Source: an uncultured delta proteobacterium
GTDB lineage: Bacteria; Desulfobacterota; Binatia; Binatales; Binataceae
Length of the DNA stretch: 64,000 nt
Assembly (NCBI GenBank): GCA_963794325.1
Contig: CAWCDG010000003.1
Coordinates: forward strand, 32,001-96,000
Direction: 5' to 3'
Both the position numbers and the translations under genes were made by a program. The notes under the pieces were generated by a model that did not search any database, was not told the origin of the DNA, and saw only the letters and a list, made by a program, of their open reading frames with translations. Below, in pieces: positions 58,012-64,000 of the stretch. The first letter of the stretch is position 1. Each line of letters starts with the position of its first letter.

Positions 58012-59611
58012 CTACCAGCTATCGATATACGGATACTTCTTCCCGCTCCGCGGCTCCGGCCGCTGCACTCGATCTCAATCCCGCCGCAATCCACCTCCTC
58101 GATTCCGCCGGATCGATCACGTCATCAACCCCGAAATGCGACGCATTGTTAATCGCCTTCCCGCGCTGATACATCGTCGCGACCATCTCATCGAATCGCT
58201 TCTTGCGCGCCGCCGGCTCCGCAATCGCCGCCAGCTCATTGCGATACCCAAGCTTCACCGCGCCCTCGAGTCCCATCGGCCCGAACTCACCCGTCGGCCA
58301 CGCCACCGTGAACATCGGCGCATCGTAACTCCCGCCAGCCATCGCAATCCCGCCGAGTCCATATGCCTTGCGCAGCACGATCGTGAAAAACGGCACCGTC
58401 GCATTCGCCGCCGTAAGAAACATCCGCGACGAATGCCGCACCAGCGCGGTCTTCTCGATTTCGGGCCCAACCATGATTCCCGGCGTGTCGCACAAAAACA
58501 AAATCGGCACGTCGAACGCATCGCACAACTGGATAAACCGCGCGCCCTTGTCCGCGCCGTCACTGTCAATCGCGCCCGCCAGATGCTTCGGATTATTCGC
58601 GACGACGCCGAACGGATGCCCCTCGATTCTCACAAACGCCGCGATCATCGTCAGCCCGAAGTCGCGCCGAATCTCGAGCACCGACCCCGTGTCAGCCATC
58701 GTCTCGATCACGTCGCGCACGTCGTAAACCCGTAGTCGATTCTCCGGAATGATATTTCGCAGTATGCGTTGATCCGCACAGCTCCATTCCTTCACCGCGC
58801 CCTGAAAGTACGACAGATATTTCCTCGCGACCTTCACCGCCTCCGCCTCGTCCTCGACCGCGATATCCACGACCCCGTTCGGCACCTGCACTTCCATCGG
58901 CCCGATTTCCTCGGGACGAAAGATGCCGAGCCCGCCGCCTTCGATCATCGCCGGCCCGCCCATCCCGATATTCGATCGCTTGGTCGCGATCACGACGTCG
59001 CAGCATCCCAGCAACGACGCGTTGCCCGCATAGCACCGCCCCGACGTGATTCCGACCAGCGGCACCAGCCCGCTCAGCTTCGGAAAATCATGAAACGATC
59101 GCGAATTTTGAAAACCGCCGTCAGTATCTCCCGGACGCCCGCCGCCGCCTTCCGCGAACAGCACCAGCGGCAATCGCAGTTCGCGCGCAATCTGGAACAT
59201 CCGATCTTTCTTGCGATGGTTCTGATGCCCCTGCGTCCCGGCCAGCACCGTGTAGTCGTACGACATCACGACGCATCGCGACCGCTCCGCGCCGAACAGA
59301 TTTCCATTGACCGTCGCGAGCCCGGTGACCAGCCCGTCCGCCGGCGTATTCTTGATCAGGTCCTCAATCGTGCGACGCCTTCGCTGCGCCGCTACGACGA
59401 TCGGCCCGTACTCGACGAACGTCCCCGCGTCGCACAAATCCTCGATATTCTCGCGCGCCGTCCGCTGCCCCGTCTTCCTCCGACGCGCCACCGCGTCAGG
59501 CCGCGCCGCATCGAGCCCAACCTCATGCCGCCCGATCACCTCCGCAAGGTCAGCCCGCACAATCTCGATATCTTTATTTCGTGATGCCACGTTTGGTGGA
59601 TAATACTTCAA
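58012..59611 (-). CDS. Acyl-CoA carboxylase carboxyltransferase, frameshifted near 58069, possibly N-truncated
   Basis: YDYTVLAGTQG, GGGGRPGD, DTPGIMVGP; natural end RSGKKYPYIDSW* lies in another frame. Confidence 0.85.
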
Positions 59612-59683: not shown

Positions 59684-60346
59684 TCACACGCATCCCCCGA
59701 CCCAGACCACCCGCCCGATTATCTTCACGCTCGGCACCACCATCGATTCGTATTTCGGATTGTCGCTGCGCACCAAAATCTTCCCGTCTGGCCGCCGCTG
59801 GATTCGTTTCACCGTCAGCCCCCCGTCATGCCGCAGCAGGTAGATTCCGTCCTGCCGAAAGCGCGGCTCCGCGAGATCAGCCAGAATCAAATCCGAGTCC
59901 TCAACCGTCGGCGCCATCGAATCGCCAACCACCTCGATCAGAATCAAATCGCGCGGGTCCGCGCGCAGCACCCGCTTCACCCAGTCCGCGCGAAACGCCA
60001 CCGAATCCACCACCTGCTCGCTGCGCATGATCCCCTCGCGCCCAGCCGAGAATCGAATCCGGCTGCGCGGCATGAAAATAAAATCCCCATGCTCGACCGC
60101 CCGCGCGACCGCCTGCCCGCTATGCGATATCTCCTCGCCCGTCGCCAGCCATTCCACCGACACCCGCGCAGCTCGCGCCAGCGCCACCAGGTTCGCCACG
60201 CTCGGCTGTCCCCGCCCCGCTAGCCATTTGTAAATTGCGTTGTCGGATACCCCGACCGCGGTCGCCAGCGCGACTACCGATCCAAAGGACTGAATCACTT
60301 GCGTCAGCCGCGAGCGAAATGCGGCGTCAACCACTGTAGTTGACAT
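59684..60346 (-). CDS. CI-like repressor (HTH plus S24 peptidase)
   Basis: HTH..VSVEWLATG, VVGDSMAPT, VKRIQ, SDNPKY, IIGRVVW; AGGAG RBS. Confidence 0.92.
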   Translation of the reverse strand: MSTTVVDAAFRSRLTQVIQSFGSVVALATAVGVSDNAIYKWLAGRGQPSVANLVALARAARVSVEWLATGEEISHSGQAVARAVEHGDFIFMPRSRIRFSAGREGIMRSEQVVDSVAFRADWVKRVLRADPRDLILIEVVGDSMAPTVEDSDLILADLAEPRFRQDGIYLLRHDGGLTVKRIQRRPDGKILVRSDNPKYESMVVPSVKIIGRVVWVGGCV

Positions 60347-60622
60347 AAATCTCCTAATGTGAAATAAGATTCTTAAAGCGCATGTTCCCGCCTCAAGCAA
60401 ACCGCTCTCAAGTTAAACGCCGGCCTCCCCCGCCGCATGCCTACCTCGATGCGCGCCTCCCCCGCACCTCTCCGCGACTACACATCTTTAGCTCAGTTCG
60501 CCACCTTGTGCCCGCCACGCCCCGGATTTCTCTCCTTAGCCCCGTCGTTCTTTCCGATCTGCTCCGATCGTTTTCATCATCGACGCACCACCGGTTTCCC
60601 ACCCAACTCGCGCGGAGGATTT

Positions 60623-60847
60623 ATGGAACCCGCGATCTCTCCGGTTCGTCCCAGTAGTAGTTCTGGCCGCCTGGTCTCCTGTCTGTGGTGTCATGGGGAC
60701 ACCACCCAAGCCGAGATCATTCGCAACCACGGTCTGTGTCCAGGCTGCGTTCACGACAATGTCGAGCTCAGTTGGCGGGTGATTTACGATCGCGATCGCA
60801 AAATCGGCGCGGTGCCGGCCAATCTTCGGGTTGCGTACGGGTTATGA
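60623..60847 (+). CDS. Small Cys4 zinc-finger hypothetical protein
   Basis: GGAGG RBS; CLWC and CPGC; ATGA overlap with the next gene. Confidence 0.6.
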   Translation: MEPAISPVRPSSSSGRLVSCLWCHGDTTQAEIIRNHGLCPGCVHDNVELSWRVIYDRDRKIGAVPANLRVAYGL

Positions 60848-61341
60848 ACGTCGCGGCCAATCGGATGCCCGCGCTCGGGCGCGCGATGTCGCCGGAGCCG
60901 CGTTTCAATCCGTTCGTGGTCGCGATGCGCCACACGCTTTACGATCAGATCGGCGATTCAATCGGCGCCGACGCGGCCGACCGGCTGATCGCCGACTTCG
61001 GCGGGCGTCGATTGTATATCCCGATCGCGCCTGCGCGCGGCGATTTGATCACGCGCTCGATTGGATTGCTCGCGGCGCTCACGATGGCGCGAGCATTCGG
61101 CGGCGACCGCATCCTGATTCCGGCCACTTGCAGTCATGCGCGCCGCCGCGCGCGCATCGTGATGCTGCGCGCTGAAAACGTCAGCATCTCGCACATCGCA
61201 CGCGAGCTCCGATGCACCGAGCGCTACGTTTACAAAGTCCTCGCCCTATGCCGCGCCGCCAAACCCTCTGATTCCCCCTCAAAAACGTCCGCGCCGATCG
61301 CAGAGCGATTGAGACGTGGACATATCAACCGCCGCTCCTGA
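60844..61341 (+). CDS. Mor/C-family transcription activator
   Basis: IG..AA..L..FGGRRLYIP repeated, C-terminal HTH IARELRCTERYVYKVL. Confidence 0.85.
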   Translation: MNVAANRMPALGRAMSPEPRFNPFVVAMRHTLYDQIGDSIGADAADRLIADFGGRRLYIPIAPARGDLITRSIGLLAALTMARAFGGDRILIPATCSHARRRARIVMLRAENVSISHIARELRCTERYVYKVLALCRAAKPSDSPSKTSAPIAERLRRGHINRRS

Positions 61342-61353
61342 CCCTCTCCCAGT

Positions 61354-61377
61354 GGGGCGGGCCGCCGTGCCCGCCCT
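61354..61377 (+). terminator. Hairpin after the Mor-like gene
   Basis: GGGCGGGC / GCCCGCCC. Confidence 0.4.
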
Positions 61378-61430
61378 CCGCTGTCGCCAGCTTTTCACGC
61401 CCGAGCCAGAGGCCGCATAGACACTGAAAA

Positions 61431-61688
61431 ATGAAAAAAGCCTTCTACAAATCCAAAGCATTCTACGGATGCGTCAGCACGATCGTTTTGATCGTCGGCG
61501 ACATGGCAGCCAACGGCGCGACGCTCGGCAACATGACGGCGCTGATGACGGCGGGGTTTGCGCTCTACGGCCGTATCGTCGCGACCGCGCCGCTCGCGAT
61601 CAGCGACCAATCCGAGGCTGACGTCGAGGAGGCAAAGGCAGATGTACGCAAAAGCAAAGTTGCGGTTGACGCTGACCATGGGAATTAG
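61431..61688 (+). CDS. Holin-like two-TM protein
   Basis: KAFYKSKAFYG, two hydrophobic segments, YGRIVA, charged tail. Confidence 0.65.
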   Translation: MKKAFYKSKAFYGCVSTIVLIVGDMAANGATLGNMTALMTAGFALYGRIVATAPLAISDQSEADVEEAKADVRKSKVAVDADHGN

Positions 61689-61983
61689 CGTGTTAGCCGC
61701 GGGATGCGCGCCGACTTTCGAGTCGCATATCGACTCGCCGCCGGCAATATCACCTCAGATCGCGACGCAATGCACGTCCACTGAAAAACTGGCGGCGCTG
61801 GATCCCAAACCGCAATTACCGGATGCGGATCAATCGCCATGTCCCGATGGAAGTGGATTGGCCGCATGTTTCACGCATGACCAGGACGCGATACGCCAGA
61901 ATCGTTTCAAGATTCTTCACGACGATCGCGACTACTGCCGCGACGCGTATGAGAGGGCGGTGAAACATGTTGCGGGGGATTGA
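61642..61983 (+). CDS. Lipoprotein, possible spanin-like
   Basis: AAGC lipobox, Pro/Cys-rich, overlaps the holin-like gene. Confidence 0.55.
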   Translation: MYAKAKLRLTLTMGISVLAAGCAPTFESHIDSPPAISPQIATQCTSTEKLAALDPKPQLPDADQSPCPDGSGLAACFTHDQDAIRQNRFKILHDDRDYCRDAYERAVKHVAGD

Positions 61984-62434
61984 GGTGGAGGCGAAGAACC
62001 TAACCCCTAACCCCTTCCCTCGAGGGAAGGGGAACAATCGCGGGCACGGCGGCCCGCGCCACTGGTTCCGATCTATCCGGTTCCCCTTCCCGTGCGGGAA
62101 GGGGTTAGGGGTTAGGTTCCTCTATTCCACCGCAATCCTGATCTCGATCCTCCCCTTCGCCGCATCGTGCTCCCAGGTCCACGAAAAAATGTTCACCCTC
62201 GATTGTGCCATCGGGCGCGCGCCGCTCGCGGGCGAGCTGGCGCCGGGCACCGCGATGGCGCTGGACGTCTCGACCAGCCCGATCCCGCTGCTCTCGCCGT
62301 CGCATCGCGCGATCGCGCGATGCGACAGCGCCGGCGTCGTCACGATGGATATCGAAACCCCAATCGACACCGGCCTGAGCCAGCTATCGACGCCCTTAAG
62401 CACTGCCGCCGCCCACATAACTTATGTGCCATGA
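61967..62434 (+). CDS. Possible lipoprotein with repeat-derived N-terminus
   Basis: ILISILPFAASC lipobox-like segment; start uncertain. Confidence 0.4.
   Translation: MLRGIEVEAKNLTPNPFPRGKGNNRGHGGPRHWFRSIRFPFPCGKGLGVRFLYSTAILISILPFAASCSQVHEKMFTLDCAIGRAPLAGELAPGTAMALDVSTSPIPLLSPSHRAIARCDSAGVVTMDIETPIDTGLSQLSTPLSTAAAHITYVP
61996..62146. repeat. Inverted pair of module A
   Basis: 61997-62041 is identical to 63038-63082; second copy at 62076-62120. Confidence 0.85.
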
Positions 62435-62444
62435 AAACAAAAAG

Positions 62445-62528
62445 CGGAGGCAGAATCTTGAATCGCGCGCGAAAGATGCGCGCTGGACAAGGTCCCTCTC
62501 CTTAAATCCTCTCCCGACGGGAGAGGGG
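62445..62528. repeat. Module B, inverted
   Basis: Reverse-complement match to 56519-56603. Confidence 0.8.
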
Positions 62529-62573
62529 AAGAACAGAAACAAAACGCCCGCGCATCTAAAAGGTGACACTCAC

Positions 62574-63018
62574 ATGAGTTCAAAGATCCGAAACGTTCTA
62601 GTAGGACGCAATTTATTGCGTCGTCTGACTTTCTGCGCCCTCGCTCTCGTCTCTCTCTGCATGCGCCCAGCAAGGCGGCGGCCTCCTGCAGCCGACTCCG
62701 AAACAGATCATCAGCGGCAAAAACACAATCGTGCCCAGCGCCGCCGCGCTAAGCATGGAGGCGACCAACTTCTGCAACGCACAAGCACAGGTCGATTACG
62801 CGGGCCTGGTCCTATACTGCGAAGGTAAGACTCCCGCGCTGCCGCTATCGATTAACACCACCTATCAGACCGAGAGCAATCAGTTCTCATGCCAGGTGTA
62901 CGGCTACACCAATTCGAGCAATCAGTTAATCGTCCCGCAGACGGTGACGCTGGGTAACTGTCCGATTGGCACAGCGCCCGCACCTGTGACGGCTCCATCA
63001 GGAGCGGTGAAGAGTTAG
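62574..63018 (+). pseudogene. Cys-rich lipoprotein, frameshifted in a (TC)n tract
   Basis: Adding one CT at 62650-62658 yields VSLSAC and joins the 62731-63018 frame. Confidence 0.6.
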
Positions 63019-63037
63019 GTGAGTAATGGCATATAGC

Positions 63038-63285
63038 AACCTAACCCCTAACCCCTTCCCTCGAGGGAAGGGGAACAATCGCGCACGAGGTCCGCGCGCG
63101 AGAACGGAACGCGTCCTTAATACTGAAAAAAAGGGGTCACCCCCAACCATCCGGTTCCCCTTCCCGCTCGGGAAGGGGTTAGGGGTTAGGTTCCACTATT
63201 CAACCGCAATCCTAATCTTCGGGAGGGGGTTAAGCTTCCTGCGATTGTTCCCCTTCCCTCGAGGGAAGGGGTTAGGGGTTAGGTT
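63038..63285. repeat. MITE/REPIN-like composite with 45-bp perfect terminal inverted repeats
   Basis: 63038-63082 is the reverse complement of 63241-63285; interior holds module D and another module A. Confidence 0.85.
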
Positions 63286-63316
63286 CCTCAAGCCTGAAAC
63301 TCCAGGAGCGATCTGA

Positions 63317-63619
63317 TTGGAACTAGGCAATGCCGCCGGATGGGCCGCCGCTTTTGTCGCCTTCGTTGCTGTCAATGCCAGCACAATCCAATGGCTGCTG
63401 AAGCGGCGCGACGATCAGCGTGAACGCGACTCCAGCCGGGTGACCGATCTGGAAGACGCGCTCACTGAATTGCGGGTGAGCATGCCGCTCGAGTACGTGC
63501 GCCGCGAGGACTGGATCAGATTCAGCGGCACCTTGGACGCGAAGTTGGATGCGATGCGCGAAGAAGTACGCGAACAGATTGGCGAAGTAAAGGAAAGGCT
63601 ATATGCCGGACGCAATTGA
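63317..63619 (+). CDS. Mu gp25-like membrane-anchored coiled-coil phage protein
   Basis: N-terminal TM, MPLEYVRREDW, position before the gp26-like gene. Confidence 0.65.
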   Translation: MELGNAAGWAAAFVAFVAVNASTIQWLLKRRDDQRERDSSRVTDLEDALTELRVSMPLEYVRREDWIRFSGTLDAKLDAMREEVREQIGEVKERLYAGRN

Positions 63620-63917
63620 CCTTGAACAAAAGAATCGCGAGGAAGCGCGCTGGCGGATGCTGCGCGTGGTTGACGCGGGCCGTCCGATAGCCGTCTCCGA
63701 GCAGATAGTCTGGCGGGTGCTCGCCGATATCAAGCTGTCGCTATCGCTCAACACCGTGCGCCGCGAACTCTCCTACCTGCGCGACCTGGGACTTATCGAA
63801 CTCGAAGGCGAGGACGCGGAAACCTGGTTCGCGAAGTTGACCGCCAACGGCGTCGACGTCGTCGAGTACACCTCCGCATCACCGGCCGGCATCGCCCGCC
63901 CGCGCAAATACTGGTGA
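63603..63917 (+). CDS. Mu gp26-like winged-helix protein
   Basis: REEARWRML..VRRELSYLRDLGLIE..LTANGVDVVEY..GIARP. Confidence 0.75.
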   Translation: MPDAIDLEQKNREEARWRMLRVVDAGRPIAVSEQIVWRVLADIKLSLSLNTVRRELSYLRDLGLIELEGEDAETWFAKLTANGVDVVEYTSASPAGIARPRKYW

Positions 63918-63927
63918 GGCGCGCGCG

Positions 63928-64000
63928 ATGAAGAAAAAGAGCGAGGCCAAGAAAAAGAAACCCGCCGCGCACCCAAAGCGCGTGCCGATAGATCCGATTC
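63928..64000 (+). CDS. Partial ORF, positionally gp27/DUF3486 (small terminase-like)
   Basis: ATG after GAGG, open to the window end; identity inferred from synteny only. Confidence 0.35.
   Translation, partial: MKKKSEAKKKKPAAHPKRVPIDPI

Follow-up and report, generated by a model that had tools for sequence, protein, structure and literature searches.

Introduction

To our knowledge, only a handful of independently domesticated phage particles are known, namely gene transfer agents (GTAs), PBSX-type elements and tailocins, and the titles and abstract openings of the literature searched mention neither a Mu-derived particle of the GTA type nor any such element in the Binatia. Here we analyze a 64,000-nucleotide (nt) stretch of DNA (the window) from a genome of the genus Binatus, in the Binataceae, an abundant and widespread soil family without cultured members. 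The window covers the left third of an element made up of BcepMu/Mu-type head and contractile-tail genes without genes for copying or moving a phage.

The element is colinear with the phage BcepMu (Bcepmuvirus), with which it shares the late order of lysis genes, gp25, gp26, gp27, large terminase (TerL), portal, protease/scaffold, gpT, gp36, gp37, sheath, FII tube, frameshifted chaperone, tape measure, U, X, D, V, W, J, I and fibre. A broader likeness in the late genes extends to Mu, B3 and D3112-type phages, and the element also encodes an activator of the Mor family. It differs from BcepMu and Mu in lacking A, B, GemA, SSB, HU, DUF3164, MuF (gp30) and G (gp31), and from BcepMu in having a tape measure of 210-490 rather than 846 codons and a repressor directly beside Mor. 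Unlike transposable phages, it has a fixed place in the chromosome, contains inserted host genes and is passed on vertically. In the portal, identity to the nearest isolated phages is only 39-45%. With moderate confidence we propose that the element is an anciently domesticated, transposase-less BcepMu/Mu-type myovirus, vertically inherited and under selection, that most likely builds DNA-filled, contractile-tailed particles for its host in the manner of a GTA or of PBSX.

Results

Two blocks of late genes without a mobility module

The source genome (G000) is a 4.45-Mb assembly of 10 contigs with an estimated completeness of 85%. Its contigs are cited as C2 to C5, genomes as G followed by a number, genera as g followed by a number, and extracted stretches as L followed by a number; the window is G000:C3:32001-96000, L001 is C3:90001-110000 (L001 coordinate + 58000 = window coordinate), and L135, L138, L140, L142, L146, L148 and L149 are IMG/VR contigs. 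An rpoB model has no match in G000 versus matches in 14 of 14 control genomes, so part of the genome, the rpoB region included, is missing from the assembly, and rpoB was unusable as a host marker.

Within the window lie an S24 repressor, a small zinc-ribbon gene, Mor, lysis remnants, and gp25-, gp26- and gp27-like genes, and the remainder of the element lies downstream on C3 and on C2. It thus occupies two loci in G000, repressor to portal on C3 and protease to fibre at C2:403854-420512, both internal to their contigs and with host genes on both sides. The second locus was located through a genome-wide search for the Mu gpT capsid gene. The Mu-type late genes gp27, portal, protease I, capsid gpT, gp36 and gp37 are all present, a complete P2-type baseplate with contractile tail is encoded, and no paralogues of element genes were found elsewhere in G000. 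An earlier reading of the window from its letters (the sequence-only reading) had pointed downstream for terminase, portal, capsid, tail and transposase genes. The gp27, TerL and portal genes do adjoin, and no transposase does; the capsid and tail genes are not contiguous with them and lie on C2. That reading had also allowed for MuA and MuB at the other end, in a B3-like layout, but the far end abuts a Mur-ligase-type gene and host genes lie on the repressor side.

Searches for genes that would copy or move a phage gave a consistent picture. The interval from repressor to Mor consists only of a control region of ~277 nt and a 74-codon gene, with no ner, A or B, in agreement with the sequence-only reading, and the whole BcepMu/Mu early region is missing (MuB was not searched for genome-wide in G000). 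Mu-transpos_C had no match in G000, in a search whose positive control was also silent; rve matched only three frames in G000, all the size of an insertion sequence (IS), on C4 and C5; and MuF (PF04233) had no match in G000, at 85% completeness, with its control positive in 5 of 14 genomes. In the 13 mapped relatives and in the IMG/VR contigs that resemble them (L135, L138, L140, L142 and L146), neither the element nor its immediate surroundings yielded a transposase, integrase or replication gene. Since the same scans detected MuB, DUF3164 and MuF in a related IMG/VR phage contig (L149, portal 54% identical), such genes would have been detected in the element.

MuF is present in L148 as well as in L149. 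In L148 (12087-13478) it is fused to an ADP-ribosyltransferase domain (PF04233 3.3e-17, PF01129 7.4e-11); MuF-toxin arrangements are known from other phages.

Distribution and synteny across the Binataceae

The element is found across the family. The capsid gene occurs in 24 of the 24 other species of the genus and the portal gene in 22 of them, and the hub gene gpD in 45 of 46 genomes of the genus, only G018 lacking it. In the wider family/order sample the capsid is present in 92 of 120 genomes and 21 of 29 genera, the portal in 88 of 120 and 20 of 29, and neither has a match in 16 genomes from 10 other families of the class. Seven unpublished genomes, all matching, are counted here (G019, G024, G063, G064, G106, G126 and G134); without them the counts become 85 of 113 for the capsid and 81 of 113 for the portal, and genus g42 is represented by those genomes alone. 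Identity falls off by genus: most of Binatus is at 92-98% and the four species that diverge most within it are at 83-88%, and the farthest genera that carry the element go as low as 75%. Genomes nearly always carry a single copy, and a few have more distant Mu- or P2-like copies in addition.

Forty-eight G000 proteins were placed on regions of seven Binatus species. Five of these (G018, G016, G014, G012 and G006) have the whole element on one contig and in one order: luciferase-like monooxygenase, hydrolase, acyl-CoA carboxyltransferase (where the region reaches), repressor to portal, a gap of 6-16 kb, protease to fibre, and the Mur-ligase-type gene. The gap in Binatus holds a methyltransferase-like gene and its neighbour together with variable host genes, including in some species a DUF7948 protein and an ABC ATPase. 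In 13 genomes of the genus and 2 of g29, an orthologue of the carboxyltransferase shares a contig with the capsid gene, at a distance of 10-33 kb. The same gene order recurs in six genomes of other genera, where the gap is filled by ICMT-like, PASTA, IS66, FHA, EamA and DUF1329 genes (host genes or IS), and host genes also lie upstream of the repressor in G139, G102 and L142.

The two blocks are 1.25 Mb apart in G007, a single contig, with a breakpoint that differs from that of G000, and portal and capsid are on separate contigs in G045 and G107. All host insertions and splits (G000, G007, G045 and G107) fall in the interval from portal to protease. Mu has its portal/F/G genes in one late operon and its I gene in another, so the insertions and breaks sit at an operon boundary. 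Insertion at varying sites and strain-specific presence, the latter a possibility left by the sequence-only reading, were not observed: Binatus relatives share their flanks, and throughout the family there is nearly always just one copy. These data rule out both an active transposable prophage and a strain-specific relic.

Two observations concern the left flank. In G102 (g25), the repressor is immediately preceded by gas-vesicle genes, comprising two GvpL/GvpF genes and one for an AAA ATPase (L123:5464-8021). The 530-residue carboxyltransferase beside the element (window 58019-59611) has a 75%-identical paralogue at C4:663201-664724, which corresponds to fused open frames of ~1150 residues in nearly every family genome searched, the short form being present only in some genera. 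The fused paralogue made a family-wide identity correlation unusable, and only the adjacent orthologue was compared.

Purifying selection, phylogeny and composition

Ratios of nonsynonymous to synonymous substitution (dN/dS) were calculated pairwise (NG86) between G000 and seven Binatus species. They span 0.02-0.17 in the core virion genes and reach 0.25 in most others:

Capsid: dN/dS 0.02-0.09
Tube: dN/dS 0.02-0.06 (0.14 on the partial gene of G018)
TerL: dN/dS 0.08-0.14
Portal: dN/dS 0.09-0.17
Sheath: dN/dS 0.08-0.14
J: dN/dS 0.10-0.15
Most other virion genes: dN/dS 0.1-0.25
Tape-measure remnant: dN/dS 0.39-0.51

The dS of the element, 0.4-1.4, is in the range of the adjacent host genes (dS 0.43-1.0, dN/dS 0.04-0.12), and all structural genes are open in G000. 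The sequence-only reading had pictured a non-replicating element kept by the host with its core frames open, and had proposed decayed structural genes as the sign that it was wrong; presence across the family, constraint on the virion genes and intact frames support it.

A tree built from seven concatenated element proteins has the same well-supported deep structure as one built from host flank proteins: both place g20 and g28 together, recover Binatus as one clade and put G017 and G006 early. They disagree on where G016 falls among close species; its position carries a star in the host tree but none in the element tree. Shared flanks in Binatus, congruent deep nodes and dN/dS below 1 across relatives are in line with the conserved locus and species-congruent phylogeny that the sequence-only reading proposed to look for. 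The composition of the element is host-like, with a GC content of 0.606, a GC content at third codon positions (GC3) of 0.721 versus a host median GC3 of 0.738, and codon-usage fractions that correlate at r = 0.98. No RNA datasets containing the capsid-sheath stretch were listed. These observations fit loss of the transposition module before the family radiated, and retention of the element by selection since then as two trans-coordinated operons.

Repressor, control region and activator

The left part of the first block, in window coordinates, is arranged as follows.

59684-60346, minus strand: helix-turn-helix (HTH) and S24 (LexA/CI-type) repressor, 220 amino acids (Pfam Peptidase_S24 8.4e-21, HTH_3 1.3e-08; phrog_4 2.5e-44)
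60347-60622, unstranded: divergent control region (alignment of 8 sequences)
60623-60847, plus strand: 74-codon CxxC...CxxC (zinc-ribbon-like) gene, first in the rightward operon (ribosome-binding site and frame conserved in 8 sequences)
60844-61341, plus strand: Mor/C-family late activator, 165 amino acids (Pfam Mor 1.5e-10; phrog_836 7.1e-19)

The longest open reading frame (ORF) of the repressor extends to 60400, and its start was set at 60346 by a conserved ribosome-binding site and ATG in an alignment of G000, six relatives and the IMG/VR contig L135. The protein carries GDSM and KR motifs, and its dN/dS within the genus is 0.17-0.22. Beside its start, a block conserved in the 8-sequence alignment contains a GTCAAC-N7-GTTGAC dyad that spans the first repressor codons and is a putative operator. 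The start codons of repressor and Mor are 498 bp apart, matching the spacing of about 500 bp given in the sequence-only reading, which had not seen the 74-codon gene between them.

The stop of that gene overlaps the start of Mor (ATGA), indicating translational coupling. Its dN/dS is 0.17-0.59, it is present in g25 and g28 too, and its product matched no Pfam or PHROG family; its resemblance to the small zinc-finger late activators of P2-type phages is one of size only. A longer Mor frame (60685-61341) also matches Pfam Mor (3.8e-10), the conserved start being at 60844, and the dN/dS of Mor in the genus is 0.24-0.52. In genus g18 (G139) a DnaA_C-type HTH gene with internally duplicated segments lies between repressor and Mor (L126:11385-12923); it is absent from Binatus.

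Lysis region and the genes from gp25 to portal

The first block continues rightward beyond the end of the window.

61342-61430, unstranded: endolysin-deletion scar, ~91 nt in place of the relatives' 531-nt GH108 endolysin gene (blastn against G007)
61431-61688, plus strand: holin-like small membrane protein, 85 amino acids, two hydrophobic segments (sequence character)
61558-61983, plus strand: spanin-like lipoprotein, lipobox LAAGC, probable start 61642 (sequence character)
61977-62138, unstranded: inverted pair of host repeat units of the CCCCTTCCC-N4-6-GGGAAGGGG family (repeat search)
62731-63018, plus strand: conserved small ORF, 95 amino acids (identity 59-97% in 6 relatives, 90-97% in five; dN/dS 0.02-0.18)
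63027-63289, unstranded: three further host repeat units between genes (repeat search)
63317-63619, plus strand: gp25-like membrane protein in the BcepMu gp25 position (phrog_462 8.5e-13; BcepMu synteny; dN/dS 0.11-0.32)
63603-63917, plus strand: gp26-like protein (phrog_436 1.9e-27; dN/dS 0.09-0.17)
63928-64000, plus strand, on to C3:96545: gp27 (DUF3486, small-terminase-like), of which the window holds only the start (Pfam Phage_Mu_Gp27, PF11985, 4.7e-36)
C3:96852-98375, plus strand: TerL (phrog_2 4.8e-32)
C3:98842-100227, plus strand: Mu-type portal (Portal_Mu, PF06074, 3.5e-102; phrog_113 7.1e-130)

An endolysin with GH108 and PG_binding_3 domains directly follows Mor in six Binatus relatives and in G069 and G102 (tblastn, query from G102); in G100 it sits elsewhere within the element, and the seventh Binatus relative, G017, was left out of the count because its sequence ended at the lysis region. 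No tblastn match to the endolysin was found anywhere in the G000 assembly. The endolysin-less junction of G000 is matched by short-read contigs from runs X1 and X2, no single contig covering the whole stretch. The loss is private to G000, so the absence of an endolysin noted in the sequence-only reading holds for this genome and does not extend to the element as a whole.

The holin-like gene is conserved in relatives (dN/dS 0.10-0.13 in three, 0.35-0.53 in two), as is the lipoprotein gene that overlaps its 3' end in another frame (dN/dS 0.26-0.43); neither ORF matched a family in the Pfam and PHROG scans, and the same is true of the 95-residue ORF. The gp26-like protein matches genes just 5' of the small terminase in B3, D3112-like phages and BcepMu (gp26). 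The holin-like, lipoprotein, gp25-like and gp26-like genes that the sequence-only reading placed after Mor are all there, in an order that recurs in relatives, and the repeats it saw between genes do belong to genome-wide host families. Of the 211 genomic copies of the CCCCTTCCC/GGGAAGGGG family, five fall in a 1.3-kb part of the locus, and read depth for this family is in the thousands in metagenome contigs.

Phage genes end after the portal on C3, where a methyltransferase-like gene and a second conserved gene follow on the opposite strand, then ~3.5 kb of repeat-rich DNA private to G000 and an ECF transporter. Several host repeat families cluster after the portal (C3:100200-106300) around ORFs unmatched in the 13 mapped relatives, including GTGAAACCC...GGGTTTCAC (100 copies genome-wide) and GGCAGGGGTGACCCCTGC (155 copies); these repeats may mark the rearrangement that split the locus. 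An ORF at L001:11105-11674 was rejected as a wrong frame (dN/dS 0.8-1.0, very low dS), the true gene being the methyltransferase-like one on the opposite strand.

Head-tail operon on C2

The second block runs in one direction through protease/scaffold gpI, a virion protein, capsid gpT, gp36, gp37, sheath, FII-type tube, tail chaperone, an RRM-domain gene, a short tape-measure candidate, U, X, D, V, W, J, I, fibre and an 884-residue protein. Protease I, capsid gpT, gp36 and gp37 match PF10123 (9.8e-71), PF10124 (1.6e-92), PF07030 (2.5e-35) and PF09646 (2.7e-31), the frameshift extension of the tail chaperone is conserved, and no Pfam or PHROG family was found for the 884-residue distal protein or the tape-measure candidates. 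Three features of this block need separate mention.

C2:403794-403820, no strand assigned: conserved 27-nt site with GTTCA half-sites, GTTCAGGGATGAACTGTTCAGCCTTAT, ~60 nt upstream of the protease/scaffold gene
C2:409572-410090, no strand assigned: tail tube, the real gene behind a miscalled frame
C2:410622-410906, no strand assigned: RRM_1 RNA-binding protein gene inside the tail operon, between chaperone and tape-measure remnant (Pfam 1.2e-21)

The site 5' of gpI, of pattern GTTCA-N4-TGAAC-N-GTTCA, hardly varies in Binatus, g20 and g28, whereas the sequence around it has diverged. It accompanies the protease gene even in genomes that lack the adjacent ABC gene, and occurs once in the G000 genome. 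It is a candidate binding site for Mor or for the zinc-ribbon protein. A late-promoter motif shared across the element is thus unsupported, the site being single in G000 and unmatched upstream of gpI in g18, g24, g25, g40 and the IMG/VR contigs. The miscalled frame, L005:19721-19981, had a dN/dS of 3.6-9.9 at very low dS.

Alleles of the fibre and the 884-residue protein fall into classes that cut across the species tree, with 83-97% identity to G007 and G016 and 40-61% to G018, G014 and G012, as expected of receptor-binding parts. The RRM_1 gene, of host type, is kept in Binatus, g20, g28 and two IMG/VR contigs, and with a dN/dS of 0.03-0.10 is more constrained than its phage neighbours. In G102 (g25) an IS-like insertion with direct repeats interrupts the tape-measure gene.

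Discussion

We infer induction, particle assembly, DNA packaging and transfer from the gene set as follows. DNA damage would lead to self-cleavage of the S24 repressor, and the particle is probably SOS-inducible. Cleavage would open the rightward operon (zinc-ribbon gene, Mor, endolysin, holin-like, spanin-like, gp25, gp26, gp27, TerL and portal), and Mor would then activate the second operon, from protease/scaffold and capsid to tail fibres, in trans. Without a transposase or replication, the terminase could fill heads only with chromosomal DNA, and lysis would release the particles, a step that the G000 copy may be unable to take by the endolysin route. Activation in trans would make host insertions and locus breaks at the operon boundary tolerable without loss.

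Several observations weigh against a domesticated, particle-building myovirus. The element is known from its genes alone, and its host lineage is uncultured. MuF and G of Mu/BcepMu are missing; in L140, L142 and L146, which are similar to other Binataceae genera, the portal is directly followed by the protease gene with no room for them, so that the gap between the blocks is secondary and MuF and G were already absent. The tape-measure gene has only ~210-300 codons in Binatus, behind the inserted RRM gene, against the 846 of BcepMu (open frames of 491 codons occur in g24 and 448 in g18), and no tape-measure match was found in g20 and g28 genomes. The GH108 endolysin is lost in G000, and the genes from the tail chaperone onward, as far as the start of J, are gone from G018. 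Portal, capsid or gpD is fragmented in G012, G021, G003, G104, G014, G145 and G148; the host carboxyltransferase is also split in G003 and G094, both with a broken capsid gene, and in several other assemblies, so these breaks may be assembly errors and cannot be called pseudogenes. Mor, the zinc-ribbon gene and the tape-measure remnant evolve fast (dN/dS 0.17-0.59), and the GTTCAGGGATGAACTGTTCAGCCTTAT site was not found upstream of gpI in g18, g24, g25, g40 or the IMG/VR contigs. Finally, 28 of 120 family genomes have no capsid match and 32 of 120 no portal match, and left flanks differ between distant genera.

Some of the same features could reflect a killer particle, in which R-type-tailocin- or PBSX-like tails act against competing strains and heads are made whose DNA is not delivered. 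Such a weapon would account for the contractile tail with its complete P2-type baseplate, for the shortness of a tape measure that is needed for DNA passage, for the allele classes of the fibre and 884-residue protein (40-61% versus 83-97% identity), which resemble bacteriocin specificity swaps, and for an SOS-type repressor, as in pyocins and PBSX. We nonetheless consider it unlikely: constraint on terminase, portal, protease and capsid (capsid 0.02-0.09) equals or exceeds that on the tail genes, a pure tailocin needs none of these four, and no tail-only version was seen among the 13 relatives mapped. Because head, packaging and tail genes are all constrained, a tail-only bacteriocin is an inadequate explanation. 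Of the two roles thought plausible in the sequence-only reading, that of a pure tailocin is accordingly unsupported, and gene transfer is kept as a prediction.

The losses in particular lend themselves to another account, that of a grounded, functionless prophage relic persisting through slow decay or through shielding by embedded host genes (RRM protein, ABC ATPase, methyltransferase). Decay would explain the missing endolysin of G000, the missing chaperone-to-J stretch of G018, the 28-32 of 120 family genomes in which the element was not found, the absence of MuF and G, the frames broken in several genomes and the host repeats in intergenic spaces. Yet at a dS of 0.4-1.4 neutral genes would fill with stop codons, and ~25 genes are open, most with a dN/dS of 0.02-0.25; neighbour shielding cannot produce protein-level constraint on all the structural genes, insertions and breakpoints avoid the operons, and the chaperone frameshift extension is preserved. 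A relic is therefore improbable in our estimation, somewhat more so than a killer particle. It is highly improbable that the element is a still-active temperate phage, co-diverging with its hosts or re-integrating at one site through unrecognised replication or integration functions. The full pair of repressor and Mor, the lysis cassette of most species and the listing of related stretches as viral in IMG/VR would suit such a phage, but its halves are 1.25 Mb apart in G007 and on different contigs in G000, G045 and G107, and the gap is filled by differing host genes and IS elements. Transposase, integrase and replication genes are lacking in and beside the element throughout the mapped relatives and IMG/VR contigs scanned for them, dS equals that of the host flanks, and the high-identity IMG/VR contigs carry host genes.

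The reading of the element as a domesticated myovirus building DNA-filled particles can be taken a step further, though only tentatively and with less confidence. The Binataceae element may be a new, independently evolved GTA family derived from a transposable BcepMu/Mu-type myovirus, controlled by an SOS-cleavable repressor and Mor, with operons that act in trans and can be scattered, and with headful loading of chromosomal DNA as a dedicated vehicle of exchange. If particles are made, this widespread and so far unculturable soil lineage would have in them a means of gene exchange or of antagonism. The element also displays a stepwise conversion from phage to host function, in which the transposition module was lost and the repressor-activator switch retained, insertions and breaks occur only at the operon boundary, and the endolysin, the tape measure and part of the tail have been trimmed in a lineage-specific manner.

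Comparison with known systems places the element among host-retained particles of distinct origins. With GTAs and viriforms (RcGTA of Rhodobacter capsulatus, BaGTA, VSH-1, Dd1 and VTA) it shares a head-tail set without replication or integration genes, family-wide and vertical inheritance, purifying selection, host-matched composition and the possibility of being spread over several loci. RcGTA is HK97-type and siphovirus-like, whereas the element has an independent Mu/BcepMu myovirus origin and a contractile tail; by gene content it also keeps a phage-type S24 repressor and Mor, both under constraint, rather than known host regulators. PBSX of Bacillus subtilis is likewise a defective myovirus fixed in the chromosome of related species, with genes for heads, contractile tails and a phage-type repressor; the probable inducibility by DNA damage, and DNA-filled heads unable to propagate the element, would be further common traits. 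The likeness is of kind only, and the phage ancestry and host phylum are unrelated. R-type tailocins such as pyocin R2 share P2-type sheath, tube, baseplate and fibres under host retention, and probably control of the SOS type. Tailocins are without capsid, portal and terminase, whereas the Binataceae element has these genes, and they are among its most constrained.

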